From Promethearchaeati archaeon SRVP18_Atabeyarchaeia-1 (GTDB lineage: Archaea > Asgardarchaeota > Atabeyarchaeia > Atabeyarchaeales > Atabeyarchaeaceae): a DNA stretch of 64,000 nt. A program made the position numbers and the translations under genes. The stretch is taken from assembly GCA_037308085.1 (NCBI GenBank), contig CP147779.1, forward strand, positions 486,184 through 550,183, written 5' to 3'. Positions within the stretch are counted from its first letter, which is position 1, and each line of letters starts with the position of its first letter. Below, piece after piece: positions 995 to 46,931 of this stretch. Under the pieces are notes generated by a model. The model had not been told where the DNA came from. It worked only from the letters and a program-made list of their open reading frames with translations, and did no database searches.

Positions 995-2285
995 GTGGAA
1001 GAATACGCTGTCAAAGACTTAAGCCTAGCACCTCAAGGACATAGCAAAATAGATTGGGCGGAATCTCACATGCCAGTTCTCATGATAATTCGTGAACGAT
1101 TCGCAAAAGAGAAGCCACTGGCTGGCAAGAGAGTATCAGCTTGTCTTCACGTAACCAAAGAGACGGCCGTGCTAGCAAGGACGCTCCGCGCGGGTGGAGC
1201 CAAGGTCGCGCTGTGCGCATCCAATCCTTTGTCGACGCAAGACGATGTTGCAGCCGCTTTGGCCAACGAGGGTTTCAACGTATATGCTTGGAGAGGCCAG
1301 AATACAGAGGAATACTATGATTGCGTAAACAACGTGCTTAACTACGCCCCTAATATCACTCTGGACGACGGGGCTGACCTGATCACAAGCATTCACACGA
1401 AACGCCAAGAACTATTCAAAGGAGTGATAGGTGGATGCGAAGAAACTACTACTGGCGTAATCCGACTCAGGGCCATGGCAAAGCAGAAAGTCCTCAAATA
1501 CCCAGTGATAGCTGTCAATGATGCACAGACCAAATGGTTCTTTGACAACCGCTATGGAACTGGGCAAAGTAGCATCGACGGAATATTGCGGTCGACCTCG
1601 GTTCTACTTGCTGGAACAAAAGCAGTTGTCGCCGGGTACGGTTGGTGCGGGAGAGGGATAGCGACTCGATTGAAAGGTATGGGATGCAGGGTGATTATCT
1701 CTGAGGTAAACCCCCTAAGAGCTCTTGAAGCAGTGATGGATGGGTTTGACGTAATGCCCATGTCTGATGCAGCAAGACAAGCAAGACTTTTCGTGACGTC
1801 CACTGGAGACAAGAAGGTGATAACAAGGGAGCATATAGACGCCATGCAGGATGGATCAATACTTGCTAATGCTGGGCACTTCAACGTCGAAATATGGGTT
1901 CCTGACCTTGAGAGTTTGTCTGTAAAGAAGAGAGAGATAAGGTCGAACGTCGAGGAATACACCCTAAAGGATGGACGACGAATATACCTATTGGCTGAAG
2001 GGAGACTCGTCAATCTGGCTGCGGCTGAGGGGCACCCCAGTGTTTGCTTCAGCAGTAACTAGCTGGGCAACTGGACAGGTCATGGATATGAGCTTCTCAG
2101 ATCAAGCTCTCTCAGCTGAATACCTAGCTAAGGAAGGAAAAACACTGAAACCAGAGGTCTACCTTGTTCCGGCAAGAATAGACAATCTCGTCGCCGAATT
2201 GAAGTTGGAGTCGATGGGGATCAAGATAGACAAACTGACAGAGGAGCAGAAGGAGTACTCGCAAGGATGGACTGAGGGGACATAG
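995..2285 (+). CDS. ahcY: Adenosylhomocysteinase (SAH hydrolase), interrupted by a 34-nt BHB intron-like element at 2043..2076
   Basis: ORF 995..2062 reads as SAHH up to ...[12 protein letters not shown] frame 1971..2285 continues with [16 protein letters not shown]...[10 protein letters not shown]. Joining G2042 to A2077 gives GHPS-E-VMDMSF and a 418-aa product. GTG start at 995 with a GAGGTGAT Shine-Dalgarno (SD) sequence. Confidence 0.9.
2043..2076 (+). other. Candidate bulge-helix-bulge (BHB) intron inside the ahcY mRNA
   Basis: Outer helix A2034-C2036 / G2078-T2080. Bulge T2041 G2042 | T2043. Central 4-bp helix CCAG (2037-2040) / CTGG (2071-2074). Bulge A2075 C2076 | A2077. Inner helix TTGC (2044-2047) / GCAA (2067-2070). 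Cleavage after the second bulge nucleotide, the same position the tRNA-Arg and tRNA-Asn BHB models in this window require, removes 34 nt including an in-frame TAG. Confidence 0.7.
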
Positions 2286-6796: not shown

Positions 6797-6943
6797 GCCG
6801 GGGTAGCTCAGCCAGGTAGAGCAGCGGGCTGTTAACCCGTCGGTCACACATGTCTAGTCGACGTGGACCACAGGTTCGAATGCTTGGAGGACATTGTCTG
6901 TCAACCATATCGTCCAAAGCCGAATTTCCTGTCCCCGGCGCCA
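6797..6943 (+). tRNA. tRNA-Asn(GUU) with two non-canonical introns and an encoded CCA
   Basis: Acceptor GCCGGGG/CCCCGGC. D arm GCTC..GAGC. Anticodon arm GCGGG-CTGTTAA-CCCGT. Intron 1 (about 24 nt) lies inside the T-stem, with BHB central helix GGTC/GACC and ACA bulges. Intron 2 (46 nt) lies at T-loop position 59/60, with a complete hBHBh' motif: ACAGG/CCTGT, TTCG/CGAA, and bulges AAT and TTT. The spliced T arm is ACAGG-TTCGAAT-CCTGT. Confidence 0.8.
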
Positions 6944-7010: not shown

Positions 7011-7135
7011 GCTCCGGTAGTCTAGCCCGGTCATCCCTCTGGGTCCGAAAGGATAGAGGCCCTTCGAGCCTCCGACGCGGGAAGCCTTGCTCAAACAAGA
7101 AAGGCTCGCGAATCCGAATCCCGCCCGGAGCACCA
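7011..7135 (+). tRNA. tRNA-Glu(UUC)-like gene with a D-loop intron and an unresolved T-arm insertion; encoded CCA
   Basis: Acceptor GCTCCGG/CCGGAGC. D stem GTCT/GGAT with a 16-nt insertion after AGCCCGGTCA. Anticodon arm GAGGC-CCTTCGA-GCCTC. T stem GCGGG/CCCGC encloses about 38 nt. After any simple excision the loops read C33 and C55. Confidence 0.6.
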
Positions 7136-8737: not shown

Positions 8738-9214
8738 ATGAATGACAAGTTCCACATGGTTGGCACTAGAATTCCAGAGTTCAGCCTCCCGAATTCCAGA
8801 GGAGAGAACGTCAACATAAGGGATTTTGAAGGCAAGAAGAACGTCGTCATAATCCTGCTAAGGGGCATAAGCTGACCATACTGTAGAGGACACCTTGCCG
8901 GACTTGCAAGTGGCTACGAAGGGTTTGAGCAACTGAACGCAACGCTGTATCCTATTACCGCGGACAAATTAGAGAATGCTGAGAAAATGGAGGAAAAATA
9001 CGCCAAGGGAAGATATCCGGTGTTCTATGATCAGAGTAAGAAGGTTGCAGACATGTTGCACCAAGAGGTCATCATTCACAAGTTCGGGAGGATGCCGGCT
9101 CTACTGGTTGTAGACAAGAAGGGAATGGTTCGATACGCGCATTACGGCGAATCAATGAGGGACATTCCCAAGAACGAGGAGATATTCGGGGTGCTCAAGG
9201 AATTCGTGGATTAG
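8738..9214 (+). CDS. Peroxiredoxin-like (AhpC/TSA-redoxin, thioredoxin-fold) protein with in-frame TGA at 8873..8875; candidate selenoprotein, otherwise a nonsense pseudogene
   Basis: GGAGG SD 12 nt upstream of the ATG. Translation: MNDKFHMVGTRIPEFSLPNSRGENVNIRDFEGKKNVVIILLRGIS-TGA-PYCRGHLAGL...PALLVVDKKGMVRYAHYG... The TGA occupies the first Cys of the family (W)CPxC motif. There are no other stops or frameshifts over 158 codons. Confidence 0.6.
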
Positions 9215-9223
9215 AGATTTGGT

Positions 9224-9260
9224 GGGGTAAGACAGAAAAGACAGATGAAGTCTATACCCT
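9224..9260 (+). promoter_or_regulatory. 3' UTR hairpin; weak SECIS candidate for the TGA-containing redoxin gene
   Basis: Lower stem GGGTA (9225-9229) / TACCC (9255-9259). 5' internal loop AGACAGAAA contains GAA; the 3' side is a single A (9254). Upper stem AGAC (9239-9242) / GTCT (9250-9253). 7-nt apical loop. Confidence 0.2.
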
Positions 9261-9291
9261 TAACTTGGCCAAAGTGACCAGATCTCGACCT

Positions 9292-21516: not shown

Positions 21517-21621
21517 GGGCCCGTGGCCTAGTCAGGATAGGGCGCCAGCCTCCTAACTCATTTCTCCCCGCAAACCGGAGAGAGCTGGTGGTCGAGGGTT
21601 CAATTCCCTCCGGGCCCGCCA
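21517..21621 (+). tRNA. tRNA-Arg(CCU) with canonical 37/38 intron (27 nt) and encoded CCA
   Basis: Acceptor GGGCCCG/CGGGCCC. Anticodon arm CCAGC-CTCCTA|intron|A-GCTGG. BHB: central helix CTCC/GGAG with bulges TAA and AGA. T arm GAGGG-TTCAATT-CCCTC. Confidence 0.9.
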
Positions 21622-28446: not shown

Positions 28447-28584
28447 GACGGGCGAAGAGACACTGGCGGGTTATATCATAATATAGGATAGAACACTATG
28501 TCACTTGACTCATCGTTTGAAGCCATTATTGTGATCTCCCAATATTCTTGGCAGTGCAGGCTGATGGAAAAGGGGATTGTCCGC

Positions 28585-28881
28585 ATGAAGGCGAAGCTTA
28601 AGGACATAATATCCATTGTCAAGGCGCTTGAAGGACAAATAAGGAAAGAGTACAAGGCAGAGGTCATTGGAATTTTCGGTTCCTATGCACGGGGGGAACA
28701 GCAGGCGAGTAGTGATGTGGACATGCTCGTGAAGTTTCTGGAAGGAGCAACTCTGTTTGACTTTGTTGGTCTTGGAGATTTTCTTGAGGATAAACTCAAC
28801 GTGAAGGTAGACGTTGTCTCGGAGAGAGCAATAAGGGTGGAGTTGCGGGACCAGATACTGAAAGAGGTCGTGACAGTTTGA
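28585..28881 (+). CDS. MNT-type nucleotidyltransferase (MntA-like antitoxin of an MNT/HEPN pair)
   Basis: GIFGSYARGEQQASSDVDMLV is the minimal nucleotidyltransferase GS...DxD motif. The stop overlaps the downstream HEPN gene start (TTGA). Confidence 0.8.
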   Translation: MKAKLKDIISIVKALEGQIRKEYKAEVIGIFGSYARGEQQASSDVDMLVKFLEGATLFDFVGLGDFLEDKLNVKVDVVSERAIRVELRDQILKEVVTV

Positions 28882-29216
28882 AGAGGGACATAAAGCTCTT
28901 TGTCAAAGACATAATCTCTGCTATGGACTCAATTGAGAAATTTGTCAGCGGTATGACTATTGACGAGATTCAAAAGGATGACAAGACCTCTAGTGCTGTG
29001 ATTAGGAAGTTTGAAATCATCGGAGAGGCGACAAAACATATTCCAGACGCGTTGAGAATTAAACACTCCGAGATTCCCTGGAGCAGAATGTCAGGAATGA
29101 GAGACAGACTGGTTCATGCTTATCTTGGGATAGACTATAGGCTTGTGTGGGATGCCATTAAGATCGATATACCGAATCTCAAGCCCAAATTCGAAAGGAT
29201 CTTGGTCGATCTTTAG
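28878..29216 (+). CDS. HEPN-domain (DUF86/HepT-like) toxin
   Basis: RDRLVHAYLGIDYRLVW contains the Rx4-6H HEPN motif. Length (112 aa) and pairing with an MNT gene are typical. Confidence 0.8.
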   Translation: MKRDIKLFVKDIISAMDSIEKFVSGMTIDEIQKDDKTSSAVIRKFEIIGEATKHIPDALRIKHSEIPWSRMSGMRDRLVHAYLGIDYRLVWDAIKIDIPNLKPKFERILVDL

Positions 29217-29597: not shown

Positions 29598-30014
29598 TTG
29601 TCGAAAGCGCTAAGAACCTATTCACTCAGCCATAACCAGGGCGAAGCACTTAGCGGTTTAATGGCAGCCTACAACACCACCCTCAATCCCATACTGCAGT
29701 GCGTCTGGCAGACGACAGAGTGGAAGCGGCACCAGATCAAAGGCGAGAAGCAGTACAGGCTCTACCCCATCTTCAGAAAGGATAACGCGTTCAGGCGGGA
29801 GCTGAGGAATAGGCACCTAGCGAGATGGAGCTACGCTGCTCACTGGGTTGACTCCGCCATGAAGACAGCCTTCAGCATCATGGCATCGTGGAAAAGGAAT
29901 TACGACAAAGGTGAGAGAAGGAGAACATGTCCACGTGCGGGGAGGCTCTTTTTGCGGGTCAAGCAGACACTCCTCAAACTTGAGGGGGACACGCTCAGGA
30001 TCACCGTGAAGTGA
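29598..30014 (+). pseudogene. Possible N-terminal fragment of an IS200/IS605-type OrfB/TnpB-like protein
   Basis: 138-aa ORF (TTG start, AAGGAGG SD). Its flavour is TnpB N-terminal-like (RTYSLSHNQGE...AHWVDSAMKTAFSIMASWKRNYDKG.RR..P......LRVKQTLLKLEGDTLRI). It stops far short of the RuvC and Zn-finger parts. Confidence 0.35.
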
Positions 30015-33748: not shown

Positions 33749-36700
33749 TTGAGCAAGGAGTTTCTCGATCCATGGGTTGTCATGCAGGCTTTTATCGACG
33801 AAGGTATTCTTGCGAGCCAACACCTGGACTCGTATAACGACTTCGTTGAGAACAGGCTTCAGCAGATCGTTGATGAAGTCGGGAAGATAGAGCCAGATAT
33901 TGAGGGGTACTACATAAAGCTCGGCAAGATCGAGATTGGAATGCCGACGGTCAAGGAAGCTGACGGCTCCACGAAGGAAATACATCCCATGGAGGCGCGA
34001 ATACGAAACCTAACCTATTCGGCTCCGATCTACCTTGAGATGACTCTAGTCCATAAGGATGAGAGGACAGGTATTGAGGTTGAGGACAAGCCTTCCAAGG
34101 AGTACATCGGTAGGCTCCCGATAATGTTGAAGTCCGTGAAGTGCCCCCTGTCCAAGATGTATGCTGAGGAACTGATTAAGATCGGGGAAGACCCAAATGA
34201 CCCTGGAGGCTATTTCATCGTCAACGGCTCAGAAAGAGTTATTGTGATCCAGGAGGATCTAGCCTCAAACAGGATTCTAATTGAAGAGGGCTCTGCTGGA
34301 GCGTACTCCCATATCGCGAAGGTCTTCTCGACCTCCCGAGGATTCAGAGCCCCCGTTACTCTTGAGAGAAGGCGCGAAGGATCCCTTCGCCTTTCTTTCC
34401 CTTCCGTTCCAGGTAAAATCCCTCTGGCCATATTGATGCGGGCGTTGGGGTTGGTGACTGACAAGCAGATCAGTGAAGCCGTTTCGGACGATCCCGACGT
34501 TGTCCGTGAGCTCATTCCGACGCTTCACGAAGCCGATGTCGTTGTCGACCAAAGCGCAGCCTTGGACTACATTGGGCGCAGAGTCGCAGTAGGGCAGACC
34601 ATCGAGTATCGGCAGAAGCGAGCTGAACAGGTTCTTGACAAGTATCTTCTCCCTCACATAGGAACGAGCTCAAATGACCGGCTAAAGAAGACCTACTACC
34701 TAGGGCAGATGGCTGAGAGGTTAATTGAGCTTTCACTCCACAAACGTGAGGCCGACGACAAGGACCATTATGCCAACAAGAGGCTGAAACTGGCTGGGGA
34801 TCTCCTCGTCAGCCTATTCAGAGTCGCTTTCCTCAACTTGTGCAGAGACATTAAGTACCAAATTGAGAGAAATGCGATTCGCGGTCGTGTTCCAAGCATC
34901 CACACGGCTGTAAGGGCAGATGTCATAACTGAGAGGCTTCGGCACGCCCTCGCCACAGGAAACTGGGTCGGCGGGAAGGCCGGAGTGAGCCAACTCCTTG
35001 ACCGCAACAACTACCTTTCATCATTAAGTCACCTTAGAAGAATAATATCTCCCTTAAGTCGAAGCCAACCCCACTTCGAGGCAAGGGACCTCCACCCCAC
35101 ACACTGGGGCAGAGTGTGCCCCAGCGAAACCCCAGAGGGCCCGAACTGTGTGGCGCCGGAGACGCTGGTTACGCTTTCAGGAGGTGCCGTCTGCCGCATC
35201 GACAACCTGGAGAAGGATGAGGTTTGGCGTAGCACTAGTCTGATGTCTTCGACTTGGGATGTGACGGATCGGCCAAGTGTGAACGCTATCCACCCACTGG
35301 TGGCGCGGTTCATAAAGAATAGGACCAGTGAAGCGACATCGAGGTTGTATCGTATTACAACTGACACAGGACGTTCTATACTTGCGACACCAGAACATCC
35401 ATTCTATACTGATCAAGGTCGCATTGACGCAAAGCTTCTTGGGCCCGGGATGAGAGTTGCAGTCCTTCCAGCGGCAACCGAGCGTCCTGATTGGAGTGCA
35501 CAAGTCACAGACGGTGAGGCTCTCCTCGACGAAAAAGCAATATTGGCATCGTGCCCACCCTACTCGCATAAAGAGACCCATGTCAACTTCCTGAAGCAAT
35601 TAGGTCTGATACCGCTGCGGAGGACGAATCCGCACTACCGCATCTTGCTTCGCCTACTGGGATTCTTGTTCGGTGATGGTCACATGTCGATGAGGATCCG
35701 CGCTGGATCGTCTGGAAAGCCAAAATCTGACGTCTCCGTTCATTTCATAGGTAGACCTGAAGACCTCAATGATATCCGCAATGACCTTGCTATCATCGGA
35801 TTCAGGACTTCTGAGATAACAACATCAGAATGCACATCAGTGCTACCTGATCGGATTATACATGGCTTTACTCATCAAACCATTTGCTACCAGATGCCAT
35901 TTTGGATCCTCATGAGAGCCTTGGGCGCGCCAGCCGGTGACAAGGTGACACAAGCATTCTCCGTTCCCACGTGGATCCACAACTCATCAAATGCTGAGGT
36001 TCGTGAATTCTTGGCGGCCTTGTTTGGATGCGAGATGCTCAAACCTCTCGTAGACAAAAGGACAGGAAAGACTTTTGTCGCCCCGATGTTCAAGATGGCG
36101 AAGGAACTCTCGCTATTGGATTCATTGAATCGCTTCTTCGAAGACATTCGGCGACTATCTGAGAGATTCGGGATCAAGTTCCCTGAGAAAGCCGTCGTTC
36201 CGAAGGAGATTTTCACACGAAAAGATGGCATGATTACAAAGAAGTTGCAACTGAATTTCAGCGGCACTGATCAAAGTCTAGCTCTGCTATGGGGTAAGAT
36301 CGGCTACACTTATAGCAAGAGGAAAGAATGCCTTGCACAACGAGGATTCGGCTATATTCGAAGCAGATCTATTGATGCGGCTGCCCGGCGGAAGATAGCG
36401 GAGCATGTAATGAAAAGACAAGAGTATTTGCGAGGGACTCCCACCGAAAAAGCAAAGTCAATACTCAACGAACTGGAGCTAAAAGGAGCAAATGATGGGA
36501 TTCGGTTGCACGACATCGTCAACTGGCTCAAGAAGCGCGCTGACCCCACTAGAGTTCGCGCCTCTGCGCTTGACACCCCGACATTCGACCAATGGATCTC
36601 AAGAGCCTGCAGAGGACTGGACGGTAATGCAGGTCTGGTTTGGGAGAGAATAGAGGCGACACATGAAGAACAAGCCAGATCCGTCCCCGCAGTGGAAGAT

Positions 36701-38701
36701 GTGACGATGGCTGATGAAAACCATAATTTCTTTGCAAACGGATTCCTAACTGGGAACTGCGGCTTGGTCAAAAACCTTGCTTTAATGGCTTACATCTCTG
36801 TCGGTATTGATGATAGTCAGGTCGCGGCTAAGTTATTCGATCTTGGGGTCGCATCGATCGAGGCTACTAGGAAGGAGGGCGCGAAGAAAGGCGCTAAGAT
36901 CTTTCTTAATGGCCGTCTGGTCGGCTATCACAAGGATCCAGTCAGGTTCAGGACGCAGCTGGTTGCCCTCCGGCGCAGAGGCGAGATCAGCAACGAGGTG
37001 AATGCTGCATACTACGCTGATGCGGAAGAGGTTCAGATCAACTGTGACGCGGGCAGGGTTCGACGTCCCCTCTTCATTGTGGAGAATGGCCGGCCGAAGC
37101 TCACTCTTGAACACATAGAGAAACTGCGTAACCGCGAGTGGAGATTCGGCGATCTCGTGAGAAGTGCGATCATCGAGTATCTCGATGCCGAGGAGGAGGA
37201 GAATGCTTACGTCGCGATTGGACCGGAGTCGTTGACATCTGAGCATAACTACATGGAGCTTGCCGCTTCATCTGTCCTAGGTATTTGCGCCTCAGTTATC
37301 CCGTATCCTCAACATAATCAGTCACCTAGGAATACTTACGAGGCGGGAATGGCTAAGCAGGCGCTGGGGCTTTTCAGTGCAAACTACAGGCTTAGGGTTG
37401 ATACTCGCTCTCATGTACTCCACTACCTCCAGATGTCTTTGGTCAAGACGAAGGCTATGGACGCGATCAAGTACATAAAGCGCCCAGCTGGGCAGAACTT
37501 CGTCGTGGCTATACTATCCTTGTCCGGGTACAACATGGAAGATGCCCTGATAATGAATAAATCCTCTGTAGAGAGAGGGCTATCCCGTTCAACCTTCTTC
37601 CGTTGCTATGAAGCTGAGGAAAGAAAATACCCTGGCGGCCAGGAAGATAGGTTTGAGATTCCAGACAAAACCGTGAGAGGATATCGCGCAGCAGAGGTTT
37701 ACCGGCATCTGGGCGAAGATGGCATAATTGAGCCAGAGACCGATGTCACAGGTGGAGACGTCCTTATCGGAAGAACAAGTCCTCCCCGCTTCCTAGAGGA
37801 ATACACCGAGTTTGAGGTGCCAAGTCCTACTAGGAGAGAGACCTCCACTAATCTCAGGTATGGTGAAGCCGGCACTGTTGACACGGTCATCCTTGGTGAG
37901 ACGGTCGAAGGAAATCGCCTGGTTAAAGTGAAAGTCCGCGACTCAAGAGTGCCTGAGCTTGGAGACAAATTCGCTTCACGCCACGGTCAGAAAGGCATTC
38001 TAGGTCTGCTTGTCCCCCACGAAGACATGCCCTTCACCGAGGACGGAATCGTACCTGACCTTGTTATCAACCCTCACGCGATACCATCAAGAATGACCAT
38101 AGGCCAACTGATAGAATCAATCGCTGGGAAGGTTGGTTCACTGTCCGGGCGGTATGTTGATGGGACAGCGTTCTCAGGCGAGAAGGTTCCAGCCCTTTAC
38201 CAAGAGCTACACAAATTGGGCTTTAAGTACAATGGCAAAGAAGTAATGTATAATGGCATAACTGGCGAGAAGTACGACGTTGACATATTCATAGGTGTAG
38301 TGTACTATCAGAAACTCCATCATATGGTTGCTGACAAACTGCACGCCCGGGCGAGGGGCCCTGTTCAAATACTGACCAGGCAGCCGACAGAAGGGCGCGC
38401 CAGAGAAGGAGGCCTCAGGTTTGGGGAGATGGAGAGAGACTGCCTGATAGGACACGGGGCAACACTTCTCTTGAAGGAGCGGTTGCTTGAGGAATCTGAT
38501 AAGTGCGTCGTCCTGATATGCGAGAATTGCGGTATGCTTGCAGCGTACGATCGAAGCCGGGACAGATACTACTGCAGAGTATGCGGAGATAAGGGCAGGA
38601 TCTCGAGGGTTGAAATGTCCTACGCATTCAAGCTACTGCTTCAGGAACTTGTAAGTCTGGGCATAGCTCCGAGGTTGCTCCTCAAAGAGCGTGCATCATA
38701 G
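33749..38701 (+). CDS. rpoB: DNA-directed RNA polymerase subunit B (unsplit), intein-containing
   Basis: Full-length Rpo2 homology (1113 aa without the intein). TTG start after a GAGGAGG SD. C-terminal Zn ribbon CENCGM...CRVCG. Confidence 0.95.
35147..36757 (+). mobile_element. Intein (537 aa) with LAGLIDADG homing-endonuclease domain in rpoB
   Basis: The host sequence reads ...SETPEGPN|[10 protein letters not shown]...[12 protein letters not shown]|CGLVKNLAL... The intein starts with Cys1 and ends with Asn, followed by a +1 Cys. Block [19 protein letters not shown] motifs [11 protein letters not shown] and [11 protein letters not shown]. Confidence 0.85.
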
Positions 38702-38721: not shown

Positions 38722-41700
38722 TTGTCATCGCGCGTTCCAAAGATCATTGAGAAGATCAGATTTGGATTCTTGTCACCAGACGAGATCAGAAAACTCTCAG
38801 TAACTAGGATAATTACGGCCGACACATATGATGAGGATGGGTTGCCAATAGACTCAGGCCTAATGGACTCCAGACTCGGCACGGTTGAGCCTGGGAGAAG
38901 ATGCAAGACTTGCGGTAACCGCGTGGGAGACTGCCCAGGGCACTTCGGTCACATCGAGCTAGCGAGGCCAGTAATACATGTTGGATTCAACAAGTTGATC
39001 TACAAAGCATTGAGGGTGACCTGTAGGAAGTGCAGCAGGGTTCTGCTCAAAGACGAGGAGCTGGAGAAGTTCAAGAAGGAAATGGAGTCATGGGAGAAAA
39101 CCTGGAACACGCTAAGCGAAGATATTACCGATGAGGTTGTGAAGCGCGCTATCCGTGTGGCTGAGTGTCCCCATTGTCAAGAGGCCCAACGCAAGATAGG
39201 CTTCGAGAAGCCCACCTCCTATACTGAGGAGACTGAAGCGGGACCAGTGAGGCTCACCCCGAGCGACATTAGAGACAGGCTGGAGCGAATTCCAGATGAA
39301 GACGAAAAGCTGTTGGGCATCAATCCGAAGCATGCCAGACTTGAATGGACGGTTCTGACTGTCCTCCCAGTCCCTCCGATAACTGTCCGTCCATCAATCA
39401 CGCTGGAGTCCGGCGTGAGGTCCGAAGATGATTTGACGCACAAGCTGGTGGATGTTGCAAGAATAAACCAGAGGCTTAAGGAGAACATTGATGCCGGTGC
39501 CCCGCAACTCATCGTTGAAGATTTGTGGGAGCTACTGCAGTATCACGTGATAACCTATTTTGATAATGAAGTATCGGGTATACCGCCCGCGCGGCACAGG
39601 TCCGGACGGGCGCTGAGAACCTTGGCTCAGCGCCTCAAAGGCAAAGAAGGTCGATTTAGGAGCAACCTCTCGGGGAAGCGCGTTGACTTCTCAGCCAGAA
39701 CAGTCATCTCTCCAGATCCAAACATCAGCATCAATGAAGTAGGCGTGCCTTACGATGTGGCCAAGATCCTCACCATCCCAGAAAGGATAACTAATTGGAA
39801 CATCGAAGAGGAGAAGCGCCTAGTCAGAAACGGTCCAGACAAGCACCCAGGCGCGAACTACGTGATCCGCCTAGACGGCAGAAGAGTGGATCTGAGGTTT
39901 GTAAAGGATCTCGACTCAATTGCAGATACCATCGAACCAGGATTCATAGTGGAACGCCACCTCAAAGAAGGCGACACCGTTCTATTCAACAGGCAACCAT
40001 CACTTCACAGAATGTCCATCATGGCCCATGAAGTTCGAGTCATGCCGTTCAAGACTTTTAGGCTGAACCTCTGCGTCTGCCTATCTGGAGACACCGAACT
40101 GTACACCGATCTCGGCAGAGTTCCTATTGCTGGGCTTGCCAGAGACAACCTTGACTGCGCGCCGCTTTCCTGCGACTGGCAGAAGAACAAGGAAGCGTAC
40201 TTCTCTGGAATAGCCAGTCTTCACGTCGTTGATCCCAAGAGGCTAGGCCTGAAGTCGTACCAGATCACAACCGAGAACGGGCGAGTCATAAGAGCCACAG
40301 CGGAACATCCATTCTACACTATGCGCGGAATTGTCAAGGCGGGAGAATTGAAATGCGAAGACTCGGTAGTAGTCTATCCAATTGAAATCCCGCTTGCAGG
40401 TGGATGCCCTGACATTCTCACTCAAGAACAAATCATAAATGCCTTACCCGACCACACTTACACGCGCTATACAGTGACTCAACTCAATGCCATGGGTCTC
40501 ACCGATGTATCAGCCGACTCAGGCAAACAAATCCGGCTTGCCAGCCTTGTTGGGCATCTGTTTGGAGATGGCACTCTCCTTATTGGAGAAGAAGGTGGCC
40601 GCGTTGTTTTCCGCGCCGCAGATATGAAGGACATTCGCAGTCTCTGGGAGACTGCCCAAAGCCTCAATCTTAGCCCGACGGCCATCGAAGAATCCAAGCC
40701 AGGGGAGTTCAATATTACTCGTGCTGATGGCAAGATACTAAAACCGCGAGGCAAGACGTACATCTTCGAAGTTAGGCGGAAACCCGTTGCGGTAGCTTTC
40801 AAGGCATTGGGCGTGCCTGAGGGCGATAAGGTAGCTCAGGAGTACAGGGTTCCGAAATGGCTGAACGATGCTCCAAAAATGGCTAGACGCGCTTTCCTTA
40901 GGGCATATTTCGGGTGCGAACTCTCTACACCCCGCCTTCACACTAGCTCAGGTTCCAAGTTTAACCAGCCTGTTTTCAAGATTACTAAGGTCGAGGGTTT
41001 GTCTGTTGAGCTCTTCTTGCAGGATATTCAAGCATTACTAGACGATTTTGGCGTTCATTTATCTTCAATTACATCGGAAGACGGCAACCTAAGGAAAGAG
41101 GGTAGGAAATCCATTACCTATGTCTGTAACTTCGCCGACAACGATGACAACCTCTTAGCTCTTTTCAAAAGAATTGGCTATGAGTTTGATCACAAGAAAG
41201 AGGAACTTGCTCGGCTTGCAAGTGAATACATAACAGCCAAGAATAGAGCCAAAGCTAAGGCATCTGCGCACCTCGAAACGGCGCTTGCCCTCAGAAAGCA
41301 AGGACTTACCTATGAAGCCATTGCCAAAGCGATTGGTCATTATTCATGGGCCACTGTTGCCTCTTGGCTGTGGAACGACCGTACAGCTGCAGGATTGCCA
41401 GCCAATTTCCCTGATTTCTACACTTGGAGAAAGTCTGCGGCAAAAGGGCTGAAACAGGGTTTCGCGTGGGACAGGATAACCAACATTGAGGAAATCGAAC
41501 TACAACGCGCGTATGATATCACGACTACCGATAGTAACCACAACTTTGTTGCCGCAGAGTTCCTCACGAAAAATTGCCCGCCGTATAACGCTGATTTTGA
41601 TGGGGACGAGATGAATTTGCATGTTCCTCAGAGTGAGGAGGCGCGTGCTGAGGCGAAGATTCTGATGCGTGTGCAGGAGCAGATTCTCTCACCTAGGTAT

Positions 41701-42876
41701 GGTGGACCAATTATCGGTGGGATACAGGACTACATATCGGCTGCGTATTTGCTTACCAAGAGAGGGACCTATCTGACGCGGAAAGAGGTCAGCTCTCTCG
41801 CTCTGGCGGGAGGAATAAAGGAAGAACTCCCTGATCCTGAGACGAAGGACCCGGCTAGGTGGAGCGGCAAACAGATAATTAGCACGCTCCTTCCTAAGGA
41901 CATGAACTACACGTGGAAGGCTAAGATATGCCACAAGTGCGATGAATGCAAGAAGGAAGATTGTGATTATGACGCGTACTGCGTCGTCAAGGATGGGAAG
42001 TTGGTGTCCGGCGTATTCGACAAGAACGCGTTCGGTGCAGGGGTTCCTGAAAGTATCTTTCACTCAATAGTGAAAAACTATGGTAGCGACGCAGCCAGGG
42101 TTTTTCTCGACTCCATCACGAGGCTCCTTCTTTCTTTCATAACACTCAAGGGCTTCACAATGGGCATAGACGATGTCGAACTTAAAGAGGAAGCTGTGAA
42201 CAGGATTAGAGAGATCTTGGACGAGGGGCAACGCAAAGTCGATCAGCTGATCGGGATCTACAAGAGAAGCGAGATGGAAACCCTCCCAGGTCGCACTCTT
42301 GAAGAAACCCTCGAGATGAGAATAATGCAGGAACTCTCAGAAGCGAGAGACGGAGCAGGCGACATAGCCGACCAGTACCTTGGTATGAAAAATCACGCCG
42401 TAATCATGGCCAGAAGTGGAGCCAGAGGAGATAGGCTCAACCTAGCCCAGATGGCAGCCTGCGTCGGGCAACAATCAGTTCGAGGAGCGCGCATAATGAG
42501 GGGGTACCAGGACCGAAGCCTTTCGCACTTCAAATCAGGCGATCTCGGCTCCGAAGCTAGGGGGTTTGTCTCAAACTCCTATCGCTCCGGACTTACACCT
42601 ATTGAGTTCTTTTTCCATGCGATGGGAGGAAGGGAAGGACTCGTCGATACGGCAGTTCGCACTTCAACGAGTGGCTACATGCAGCGTCGTCTGATCAACG
42701 CTCTACAGGACATCAAGGTGGAGTACGACGGCACAGTTAGAACTTCGGTGGGCCGGATAGTCCAGTTTCAGTATGGCGAGGATGGAGTTGACCCGTCCAA
42801 GAGTTATCATGGACACGCGGTGGACATAGACGCGATACTGAAAAGAAATCTTGGCGAGAAATTCAAGAAGCGGTGA
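38722..42876 (+). CDS. rpoA1: DNA-directed RNA polymerase subunit A' (Rpo1N), intein-containing
   Basis: Rpo1 N-terminal homology (885 aa without the intein), including the zinc motifs and NADFDGDEMN. TTG start after a GGAGGTG SD. Confidence 0.95.
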   Translation: MSSRVPKIIEKIRFGFLSPDEIRKLSVTRIITADTYDEDGLPIDSGLMDSRLGTVEPGRRCKTCGNRVGDCPGHFGHIELARPVIHVGFNKLIYKALRVTCRKCSRVLLKDEELEKFKKEMESWEKTWNTLSEDITDEVVKRAIRVAECPHCQEAQRKIGFEKPTSYTEETEAGPVRLTPSDIRDRLERIPDEDEKLLGINPKHARLEWTVLTVLPVPPITVRPSITLESGVRSEDDLTHKLVDVARINQRLKENIDAGAPQLIVEDLWELLQYHVITYFDNEVSGIPPARHRSGRALRTLAQRLKGKEGRFRSNLSGKRVDFSARTVISPDPNISINEVGVPYDVAKILTIPERITNWNIEEEKRLVRNGPDKHPGANYVIRLDGRRVDLRFVKDLDSIADTIEPGFIVERHLKEGDTVLFNRQPSLHRMSIMAHEVRVMPFKTFRLNLCVCLSGDTELYTDLGRVPIAGLARDNLDCAPLSCDWQKNKEAYFSGIASLHVVDPKRLGLKSYQITTENGRVIRATAEHPFYTMRGIVKAGELKCEDSVVVYPIEIPLAGGCPDILTQEQIINALPDHTYTRYTVTQLNAMGLTDVSADSGKQIRLASLVGHLFGDGTLLIGEEGGRVVFRAADMKDIRSLWETAQSLNLSPTAIEESKPGEFNITRADGKILKPRGKTYIFEVRRKPVAVAFKALGVPEGDKVAQEYRVPKWLNDAPKMARRAFLRAYFGCELSTPRLHTSSGSKFNQPVFKITKVEGLSVELFLQDIQALLDDFGVHLSSITSEDGNLRKEGRKSITYVCNFADNDDNLLALFKRIGYEFDHKKEELARLASEYITAKNRAKAKASAHLETALALRKQGLTYEAIAKAIGHYSWATVASWLWNDRTAAGLPANFPDFYTWRKSAAKGLKQGFAWDRITNIEEIELQRAYDITTTDSNHNFVAAEFLTKNCPPYNADFDGDEMNLHVPQSEEARAEAKILMRVQEQILSPRYGGPIIGGIQDYISAAYLLTKRGTYLTRKEVSSLALAGGIKEELPDPETKDPARWSGKQIISTLLPKDMNYTWKAKICHKCDECKKEDCDYDAYCVVKDGKLVSGVFDKNAFGAGVPESIFHSIVKNYGSDAARVFLDSITRLLLSFITLKGFTMGIDDVELKEEAVNRIREILDEGQRKVDQLIGIYKRSEMETLPGRTLEETLEMRIMQELSEARDGAGDIADQYLGMKNHAVIMARSGARGDRLNLAQMAACVGQQSVRGARIMRGYQDRSLSHFKSGDLGSEARGFVSNSYRSGLTPIEFFFHAMGGREGLVDTAVRTSTSGYMQRRLINALQDIKVEYDGTVRTSVGRIVQFQYGEDGVDPSKSYHGHAVDIDAILKRNLGEKFKKR
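40078..41574 (+). mobile_element. Intein (499 aa) with LAGLIDADG homing-endonuclease domain in rpoA1, four residues upstream of the NADFDGD catalytic loop
   Basis: ...FRLNLCV|CLSGDTELYT...HNFVAAEFLTKN|CPPYNADFDGDEMN... Block B ATAEHPFYT. LAGLIDADG motifs LVGHLFGDGTL and RAFLRAYFGCE. Confidence 0.85.
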
Positions 42877-45620: not shown

Positions 45621-46283
45621 CTACCCTTTCTCCTTCTCTTTCTTGGATTTCCCTGACGGCGCACTGGTCTCGAGTTCACTTCTCAACTGGTCGAGTTCTT
45701 TTTCAACTTCCTTCCGCTCAACACTCTTGTCCGAAGAGGGAACCTTAGGGAGCTGACCACCTTCTTCCAGAGCAACCTCAGCTTCCAACTTCTCAAGCTC
45801 GCCATCGACGCTAGGTTCGCCTTCGTCCACTGCAAGCCCAGAACTCAGAATCTCAGATGTCTGCTCAACCTCGCGCATCAGTGACTCAGTCTTGGCGATC
45901 TGCTCAACTGACCTCTCGACATCGACCAGCTTCTGGGCGCGAGAAAGCTCACCAGCTGCAAGGTTAAGGGCTTGATACATTTCGACATCGTCATGAGAAC
46001 CTTCAATAGCCGTTATTGAGTCTTCTAGACTAGCTCTCATGCGGTCATACCTATTCATAAGAGTTTGACATCTCTGCCATCTGCCAAGGTAGAACTTACC
46101 CGCCGTCTTGTTCCTGTGTCTGATACTCTCCTTGGCTTTTTCATAGTACTCCATCGCCTGCCTCTCGAAACCACGGCTCCTAAAGGTCAGCTTGTTTACT
46201 GTTGATCTTATCTGTGCGACGCTCTCATCCTTGCTCTTCTTCTTACCGAAGATCCTCCCGATAATGTCGCTCAAATCAACCAC
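45621..46283 (-). CDS. ESCRT-III/Snf7 (CdvB-like) family protein
   Basis: 220-aa helical protein. It has a basic N-terminal helical hairpin (..AMEYYEKAKESIRHRNKTAGKFYLGRWQRCQTLMNRYDRMRASLEDSI), a middle region (..EMYQALNLAAGELSRAQKLVDVERSVEQI..) and an acidic C-terminal tail, as in Snf7/Vps proteins. Confidence 0.55.
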   Translation of the reverse strand: MVDLSDIIGRIFGKKKSKDESVAQIRSTVNKLTFRSRGFERQAMEYYEKAKESIRHRNKTAGKFYLGRWQRCQTLMNRYDRMRASLEDSITAIEGSHDDVEMYQALNLAAGELSRAQKLVDVERSVEQIAKTESLMREVEQTSEILSSGLAVDEGEPSVDGELEKLEAEVALEEGGQLPKVPSSDKSVERKEVEKELDQLRSELETSAPSGKSKKEKEKG

Positions 46284-46322: not shown

Positions 46323-46931
46323 CTAGACTTTCGATTCCTTGAGTTTCTTAATCTGCTTCTCAAGCTCTGACTCTTTTCCACTGGGTACGGGAAGAGAGGT
46401 TGTTGCTTCAACTTCAGCATCTATTTGTCCCATGGCCTGATTCACGTCTTCCGGGGTCACGACAGTTGAACCAACGGCTCTGTCGACGCTACTCTCAGTG
46501 ACTTCCTGTGCGAGCTCGACATGTTGAAATTCCTTGTCAATATCATCAACCATGGTCGCAATATCGGGGATATTCACGGACACCCTCAAGTCCTTGAGGG
46601 TCGTTCTCATGCTTCCAAGAATATCGGCTATGTCATGAGCCATCTGACTCTGGCGAAGCCTGAACAACATACCTTCTATCCTAAGGCGGTACATATCGAT
46701 TCCTAAAGCCCATTTCTGGTAACGAACGTACTGCTCGGCATACATTCTAGCGGCAGAATCATTGCCTTCCTTCCTGTACTGCAGGGCTTTTTCTCTATTG
46801 CGCCTGTATTCAGCTTCGAGTTGCCGACGCTGGAAATCCATTTTCTTGCAGAACACGTCTATATTGACTATTAGGCGACGATAGTCTGATCCCTTGATCC
46901 ACTGGGTAAAACGCTTAAGCACAGATGGCAA
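46323..46931 (-). CDS. ESCRT-III/Snf7 (CdvB-like) family protein, second paralog
   Basis: 202 aa with the same architecture (..RNREKALQYRKEGNDSAARMYAEQYVRYQKWALGIDMYRLRIEGMLFRLRQSQ..ILGSMRTTLKDL...MVDDIDKEFQ..) and an acidic C-terminus. Confidence 0.55.
   Translation of the reverse strand: MPSVLKRFTQWIKGSDYRRLIVNIDVFCKKMDFQRRQLEAEYRRNREKALQYRKEGNDSAARMYAEQYVRYQKWALGIDMYRLRIEGMLFRLRQSQMAHDIADILGSMRTTLKDLRVSVNIPDIATMVDDIDKEFQHVELAQEVTESSVDRAVGSTVVTPEDVNQAMGQIDAEVEATTSLPVPSGKESELEKQIKKLKESKV

Follow-up and report, generated by a model that had tools for sequence, protein, structure and literature searches.

The question raised by the ahcY locus analysed here is how a gene whose reading frame is broken can specify a full-length S-adenosylhomocysteine (SAH) hydrolase. 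The gene lies on the plus strand of a 64-kb stretch of DNA from an Asgard (Njordarchaeota-related) archaeon (CP147779.1, positions 486,184 to 550,183; the whole stretch is called the window below, and positions are counted from its first letter). The frame breaks at 2042/2043: a first open reading frame (ORF; 995..2062, plus strand) runs from a GTG start at 995 to TAG at 2060–2062, and a second, in a different frame, is open from 1968/1971 to 2285 (plus strand) and carries VMDMSF and the remainder of the enzyme. Deletion of 2043–2076 (34 nt, TTTGCTTCAGCAGTAACTAGCTGGGCAACTGGAC) gives a 1257-nt coding sequence (CDS) for 418 aa with the motif GHPS-E-VMDMSF, a Glu codon split as G/AG being restored when G2042 and A2077-G2078 join. 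A sequence-only reading of the window had described both the loss of frame after ...GHPS, with its recovery in another frame at VMDMSF (ORFs 995..2062 and 1971..2285), and the 34-nt removal that yields codon G/AG and a 418-aa SAH hydrolase; its coordinates and arithmetic are correct. On the evidence set out below, ahcY very probably carries a bulge-helix-bulge (BHB) intron that would be spliced from the mRNA by tRNA splicing endonuclease and an RNA ligase (Table 1).

Both parts of the gene are identified by profile matches of orthologous gene calls: the 355-aa calls match Pfam AdoHcyase and AdoHcyase_NAD (exon 1), and the 65–68 aa calls of relatives match PF05221 AdoHcyase (exon 2). Automatic annotation of ahcY gives the 355-aa shortened product; because BHB introns are rare in archaeal protein-coding genes, gene callers cut the enzyme short at the intron.

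Taken alone, the BHB motif is not above chance. In a scan for minimal hBHBh′ elements (3+4+3 bp, at most two G.U pairs), the two strands gave 146 and 153 matches, against ~134 per strand in dinucleotide-shuffled controls, and a scan for BHB motifs fusing two ORFs returned ~90 candidates, mostly spurious. The fold energy of 2026–2090 is ordinary (−17.9 kcal/mol, z = 0.16 against shuffles), a measure that is uninformative for so short an element. The ahcY motif itself has no G.U among its ten core pairs and adds six further inner pairs. Two intron-less relatives (L081 and L082; 81–82% protein identity) read GGGCAYCCCAGCGAGGTTATGGAC across the site, and only excision of 2043–2076 matches that reading, a one-base shift of either boundary giving Ser-Gln-Val or Ser-Val-Val, not Ser-Glu-Val. 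From the shuffle counts, the chance that a BHB would place both cuts at two specified positions is estimated at ~1.5e-5 (134 matches over ~9 million position pairs), and the match of the BHB cuts to independently fixed boundaries is far beyond chance. It is this comparative evidence that we regard as decisive for a BHB intron, the motif alone being insufficient.

The geometry is that of a strict hBHBh′ element. Two bulges of 3 nt each lie on opposite strands with a 4-bp central helix (H) between them, and both flanking helices are present, the outer (h) with 3 bp and the inner (h′) with 3 + 6 bp. If each bulge were cut after its second base, the result would be a functional 418-aa ORF with the junction found in the intron-less relatives. 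The outer helix, central helix and bulges are as described in the sequence-only reading, which had called the motif canonical; the inner helix it drew, TTGC/GCAA plus two G.U pairs, is less well supported, the comparative data giving 3 bp, a bulged C2047 and 6 bp that in the window include two G.U pairs. Folded in a 251-nt context, H and h′ have pairing probabilities of 0.9 and 0.91–0.94, respectively.

Table 1 Predicted exons, intron and BHB elements of ahcY in the window.
Feature	Position	Strand	Evidence or remark
ahcY exon 1	995..2042	+	GTG start; 349 full codons + G (first base of split Glu codon)
Predicted BHB intron, 34 nt, TTTGCTTCAGCAGTAACTAGCTGGGCAACTGGAC	2043..2076	+	Excision restores GHPS-E-VMDMSF; site filled in L001 and L161-L173, empty in L081/L082
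ahcY exon 2	2077..2285	+	AG ends the Glu codon, then 68 codons; stop 2283-2285
In-frame TAG (exon-1 frame, intronic)	2060..2062	+	Would stop translation of unspliced mRNA at 355 aa
Complete hBHBh′ motif	2034..2080	+	Sequence and BHB scan match without G.U among 10 core pairs
Outer helix h	2034-2036 (ACC) / 2078-2080 (GGT)	+	3 bp; paired in 11/11 sequences
Central helix H	2037-2040 (CCAG) / 2071-2074 (CTGG)	+	4 bp; paired in 11/11 sequences
Bulge 1	2041-2043 (TGT)	+	Predicted cut after 2042
Bulge 2	2075-2077 (ACA)	+	Predicted cut after 2076
Inner helix h′	2044-2046 (TTG) / 2068-2070 (CAA), then 2048-2053 (TTCAGC) / 2062-2067 (GCTGGG)	+	C2047 bulged
Intron loop, 8 nt	2054-2061	+	Closed by inner helix

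The nearest full-length relatives of the spliced protein are 81–82% identical, 418–421 aa long and uninterrupted, one being named Candidatus Njordarchaeota; a closer set (84–89% identical) has been called as 330-, 354- or 355-aa proteins that cover 78–83% of the query and share the same end point. An insert is present at the identical site in ten further distinct sequences (11 with the window, together forming alignment A1), and the intron-bearing relatives include the metagenome-assembled genome ‘Promethearchaeati archaeon LC30’ (Asgard). At least eight samples are represented, in assemblies from NCBI, JGI, ENA and Logan; among the source samples are JGI 3300051196, 3300035643 and 3300034088, ENA ERZ23500671 and ERZ27251359, and SRA SRR12952107 and SRR10854759. 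The sequences were retrieved via the shortened protein calls, a scan of metagenome contigs having given intron-less relatives only. Comparison of related ahcY loci, proposed as a check in the sequence-only reading, accordingly separates ten relatives with the insert from L081/L082, which lack it and read the predicted junction. The insert is 34 nt long, or 31 nt in L162 (a 3-nt deletion in the loop), both lengths being 1 mod 3, and gene order around ahcY is kept (beta-CASP nuclease, PAC2, ahcY, OB-fold protein, eIF2-beta, DUF424).

When the spliced protein was searched by local tblastn against 173 ahcY loci of varied archaeal and bacterial origin, the frame-breaking insert was confined to one clade. 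A quick neighbour-joining tree, built without support values, recovers this clade as monophyletic, with the intron-less Njordarchaeota as its sister group. The distribution can be explained by one gain, or by one loss among the intron-less sisters; probably an ancestor of the intron-bearing clade acquired the intron a single time and its descendants long kept it. A mobile or repeated element was rejected because the window holds only one copy of the intron sequence, whose sole match among 185,579 species-representative genomes is the ahcY of LC30.

Across alignment A1 the strict BHB keeps 98.9% of pair cells (98% for h′ alone), against 10–42% for partners slid by 1–3 columns. Three inner-helix pairs are altered on both sides (e.g. 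C2050–G2065 to A–U in L162, L163 and L165), and the covariation score exceeds those of all 500 column shuffles. In the bulges, no variation is seen at the exonic bases G2042 and A2077, which only splicing would bring together as positions 1 and 2 of the Glu codon. Their intronic counterparts (2043, 2075 and 2076) vary freely, and base 2041 is T or C only, a synonymous third position of Ser. To our knowledge, BHB bulges have no strict sequence requirement, and this pattern of variation is therefore an independent mark of the splice sites. The intron loop is also partly invariant (A32, A33, T35 and A36 within A1 columns 29–37; window 2054–2062), and the TAG is found in 11 of 11 sequences, T35, A36 and G37 being invariant and the stop still in frame in the 31-nt variant (L162).

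Selection was compared between the window and its relatives. Exon 1 has a median ratio of nonsynonymous to synonymous substitution rates (dN/dS) of 0.038; for exon 2, read in the post-excision frame, the median is 0.061. dN is 0.05–0.14. dS is saturated (1.8–2.6 for exon 1 and 0.94 for exon 2 against L161, where computable), most pairs being not computable. In every relative with a long enough contig, exon 2 stays open as far as a stop at the corresponding position, and by these measures strong purifying selection acts on it in the shifted frame. Identity at four-fold sites is 0.30–0.47, against 0.76–0.91 for the intron, and because its identity so far exceeds that of four-fold sites, the intron RNA itself is taken to be constrained.

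Two tRNA genes in the window show BHB introns of the same kind. tRNA-Arg(CCU) (21517–21618, plus strand) has a 27-nt intron (21556–21582) at the canonical 37/38 position; in its precursor an intronic UCUCC/GGAGA hairpin competes with the central helix (exon CUCC/GGAG), and no clear inner helix h′ was drawn. tRNA-Asn(GUU) (6797–6939, plus strand) has BHB introns of 24 nt (6848–6871) and 46 nt (6881–6926), both at non-canonical positions. ARAGORN accepts the 77-nt tRNA-Asn only with both introns out, and the unspliced gene scores 28.8 bits in Rfam against a threshold of 29. ARAGORN at default settings gave no tRNA; the tRNAs were recovered with Rfam and the ARAGORN intron option. Cutting after the second bulge nucleotide, put forward in the sequence-only reading as a rule common to tRNA-Arg, tRNA-Asn and ahcY, produces matured tRNAs that ARAGORN accepts in both cases. 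A third, tRNA-like gene of 125 nt (7011–7135, plus strand) has the acceptor GCTCCGG/CCGGAGC followed by ACCA and is called tRNA-Arg(CCG) with the ARAGORN intron option; the strict BHB scan did not resolve its intron(s).

Such introns in the tRNAs of the window require a BHB splicing system that functions in this organism and tolerates non-canonical positions. An (alpha-beta)2 form of the splicing endonuclease EndA with a broad-specificity L1 loop is reported for Asgard archaea (PMC5829648), as are very intron-rich tRNA sets for some Asgard lineages (PMC11291895). Together, the intron-bearing tRNAs and the reported Asgard EndA point to the presence of EndA and the ligase RtcB in the host.

We infer that in vivo splicing of ahcY would involve cutting by EndA and ligation by RtcB, along the following lines. 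In the pre-mRNA, exonic ACC-CCAG (His, Pro and Ser codons) would pair with intronic CTGG and exonic GGT (Glu and Val codons), and the intron’s own hairpin would stack on these exon-intron helices to form the strict hBHBh′, with its two 3-nt bulges four base pairs apart. EndA would cut each bulge after its second base, that is after 2042 and after 2076, and RtcB would ligate ...CCAGTG to AGGTCATGG, recreating GAG (Glu) and shifting the frame by one. The predicted junction in the spliced RNA joins GGGCACCCCAGTG to AGGTCATGGATATG, and that of a circularised intron would join ...CAACTGGAC to TTTGCTTCAG.... Spliced mRNA would be translated into the 418-aa SAH hydrolase; translation of unspliced mRNA would end at the conserved in-frame TAG after 355 aa, leaving out the C-terminal 69 residues.

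Several observations weigh against a spliced BHB intron. The outer helix has 3 bp only, with a predicted pairing probability of 0.32–0.39, and in ten of the 11 sequences a minimum free energy (MFE) fold in slightly shifted register beats the strict BHB by 1–5 kcal/mol (in the exception, L170, the strict BHB scores slightly better than the reported MFE). RNAalifold and the single-sequence MFE folds favour a 3-base register shift at a single pair, joining column 16 to 45; this pairing is lost in the two sequences with a synonymous AGC codon, and the BHB-register pair 19/45 is kept in 11 of 11. All three covarying pairs fall in one subclade (L162, L163 and L165) and may reflect few events, and the exon-borne helix halves, invariant for coding reasons, cannot show covariation. 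Pfam scans of the 64-kb window did not find genes for EndA or RtcB. An exact look-up of five spliced 418/419-aa proteins (from the window and four relatives) in a collection of 15 billion proteins found them absent, with only 355-aa forms present, and a search for spliced complementary DNA with a junction-spanning 109-aa protein gave only fragments of at most 72% identity; both are weak tests.

The same comparative data bear on other ways of accounting for the interrupted gene. If the 355-aa and ~67-aa ORFs were translated separately and the polypeptides assembled without RNA splicing, the two ORFs in the gene calls, the conserved ATG at which the second begins (Met of VMDMSF) and purifying selection on both parts would all be expected. 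That Met, however, is conserved in intron-less homologs also and hence is no evidence of a start, and the break lies inside the strongly conserved GHPSEVMD motif. A split gene of this kind, which we hold to be quite improbable, also leaves unexplained the BHB geometry, the covariation, the conservation of the intron sequence and the invariance of G2042 and A2077 beside varying intronic neighbours. EndA cleaves BHBs in any context, which would also allow cleavage without productive ligation, the element then serving mRNA cleavage or decay (down-regulation). HVO_1309 was first described in these terms, ligation not being demonstrated (PMC10485636). For ahcY this is barely credible: exon 2 has a dN/dS of ~0.06 in a frame that only precise removal of the intron opens, joining the exons restores the conserved Glu, and the window shows no further copy of ahcY, with LC30 listed once among the best 80 of 577 ahcY matches in genome contigs.

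Programmed ribosomal frameshifting, or translational bypassing over the 34 nt, draws on the exon-2 frame of the window being open back to 1968, so that one +1 shift ahead of the TAG would be enough to connect the two frames. In seven of the 11 sequences, however, the frame-0 TAG at +30 precedes the exon-2-frame stop (+34 or +46) and no single shift works, and frameshifting would replace Ser-Glu by an 11–12-residue insert within the conserved motif; for bypassing, no matching take-off and landing codons were seen by eye (no scan was made), and the junction lies within a codon. We assign next to no probability to recoding of either type. The chance that the locus is a pseudogene or a sequencing or assembly artefact, as the shortened 355-aa product of automatic annotation might suggest, is equally negligible. 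Artefact and decay in relatives had been named in the sequence-only reading as outcomes that would count against splicing; instead, the same insert is found in independent assemblies of at least eight samples from four sources, its length stays 1 mod 3, and exon 2 of the relatives is intact, with no further frameshifts or stops. dN/dS of 0.04–0.06 with saturated dS, and conservation of the intron far above neutral sites, likewise speak against decay. A group I or group II intron was ruled out (34 nt against a ribozyme core of hundreds of nt; Rfam gave no match here at E ≤ 1), and an intein was rejected as an explanation of the break. Production of the full-length enzyme would then depend on endonuclease and ligase splicing, as the sequence-only reading had proposed: cut sites, conservation, covariation and selection all favour it, and frameshifting, decay and artefact are excluded as general explanations.

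An additional and speculative possibility, which we think unlikely, is that splicing of the ahcY intron is conditional, output of full-length SAH hydrolase being gated either through the activity of EndA/RtcB or through a metabolite or other factor bound to the conserved A-rich loop. Conservation of the intron far above neutral, loop positions and TAG included, is compatible with such gating and not specific to it. If gating occurred, relief of the inhibition of methyltransferases by SAH would be gated too, and the conserved TAG would give a clean ‘off’ product. Archaea, and specifically the Asgard group as the closest known relatives of eukaryotes, would then have their own equivalent of the regulated unconventional splicing seen with XBP1/HAC1.

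Elsewhere in the window, no second CDS with a BHB intron was found among adjacent ORF pairs with coding potential, that of intergenic ORFs being judged by a codon-usage filter; the split-gene candidates L21e/Rpb4-like, Rpb11-like/RNase III-like and L7Ae-family (PF01248)/NusA are separate genes. RNA polymerase subunit B (33749–38701, plus strand; 1650 aa) and subunit A′ (38722–42876, plus strand; 1384 aa) each contain an intein (Pfam Intein_splicing; residues ~511–1001 and ~509–950, respectively), and with these two inteins, the tRNA introns and the putative ahcY intron the window would combine protein, tRNA and mRNA splicing. The one such pair that does belong to a single gene is an AhpC/TSA (redoxin-fold) gene (8738–9214, plus strand), which has one in-frame TGA (8873–8875) in the context ...LLRGIS-U-PYC-RGHL..., a UxxC motif. 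Its halves match positions 1–31 and 39–123 of the AhpC-TSA profile, with the TGA in the unmatched gap 32–38, and the gene likely encodes a selenocysteine protein. The 3′ untranslated region (UTR) of this gene (9214–9286) contains a long hairpin (z = −2.1) with AUGA that is possibly a selenocysteine insertion sequence (SECIS) element; Rfam gave no SECIS match there. Two adjacent Snf7/ESCRT-III genes lie at 45621–46283 and 46323–46931 (both minus strand), in keeping with the Asgard origin of the window. An overlapping ORF pair at 28498–29216 (plus strand) appears by eye to be nucleotidyltransferase/HEPN-like and is followed by an ORF (29598–30014, plus strand) that by eye resembles the N-terminal part of a TnpB-type transposon protein.

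BHB introns within coding sequence have been described in cbf5 of Desulfurococcales and Sulfolobales (Crenarchaeota; Watanabe et al. 2002; Yokobori et al. 2009, PMC2738675), and a BHB in the HVO_1309 mRNA of Haloferax volcanii is spliced (Schwarz et al. 2020, PMC7714728; reviewed in PMC10485636). A 2023 review lists cbf5 and HVO_1309 as the two known mRNA-splicing genes in Archaea and expects more (PMC10485636). A full-text literature search found no report on ahcY, Njordarchaeota or Asgard mRNA introns, adenosylhomocysteinase being unmentioned in this context. The novelty claimed for an ahcY mRNA intron in the sequence-only reading is borne out by the literature searched, which documents only cbf5 and HVO_1309 (PMC10485636, PMC2738675). 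The ahcY intron is an independent instance of a rare, known phenomenon and does not reveal a new mechanism. With splicing by endonuclease inside a CDS documented in Archaea for essentially one gene, cbf5, ahcY would add another gene family and extend the phenomenon for the first time to a central metabolic enzyme and to Asgard archaea; it would also offer a natural mRNA substrate for Asgard EndA and RtcB. Its comparative support is unusually clean (strict BHB, covariation, long retention under selection). Database entries for the clade hold the shortened 355-aa product, so that a functional methyl-cycle enzyme would be under-called in annotation and metabolic reconstruction.

In XBP1 and HAC1, a small intron (26 nt in XBP1) is cut by a protein endonuclease, IRE1, and the exons are joined by a tRNA-splicing ligase (RtcB or Trl1), the resulting frame shift giving the active protein. 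The predicted ahcY splicing resembles this in its small intron, its protein endonuclease with tRNA-type ligase and its frame shift, by analogy only: IRE1 and its paired stem-loop motif are unrelated to EndA and the BHB, and XBP1/HAC1 is a proven stress-regulated switch, whereas ahcY is likened to it by splicing only. With HVO_1309 it would share an mRNA substrate of the archaeal splicing endonuclease, the spliced RNA being the main product in Haloferax; unlike the Asgard host, Haloferax is a euryarchaeon with an alpha2 enzyme. The Haloferax element reportedly lies in the 5′ UTR, not in coding sequence.

Archaeal tRNA BHB introns, those of the window included, have the same geometry and cut rule as the ahcY intron, are of similar size (24–46 nt) and are presumably processed by the same enzymes. 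In ahcY, by contrast, the host RNA is an mRNA, the exon halves of the helices are constrained by protein sequence, and removal would change the reading frame, where in tRNAs it changes the anticodon loop. From cbf5 the ahcY intron differs in residing in a gene for a methyl-cycle enzyme, not an RNA pseudouridine synthase, and in an Asgard, not a TACK, lineage; because gene and lineage differ, the two introns would not be homologous and their origins are independent. The ahcY motif is a strict hBHBh′, whereas those of cbf5 have been described as relaxed (PMC10485636), and splicing of cbf5 was shown by reverse transcription PCR and in-vitro cleavage, where that of ahcY is deduced by comparison. 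In both, a short ORF-less intron (16–44 bp in cbf5, 31–34 nt in ahcY) with a BHB-type motif at the exon-intron junctions interrupts a codon in a conserved active-site region of a protein-coding gene, presence is lineage-specific (one clade among the 173 loci for ahcY), the gene is routinely mis-annotated as frameshifted or shortened, and the host belongs to a lineage with an (alpha-beta)2 endonuclease.

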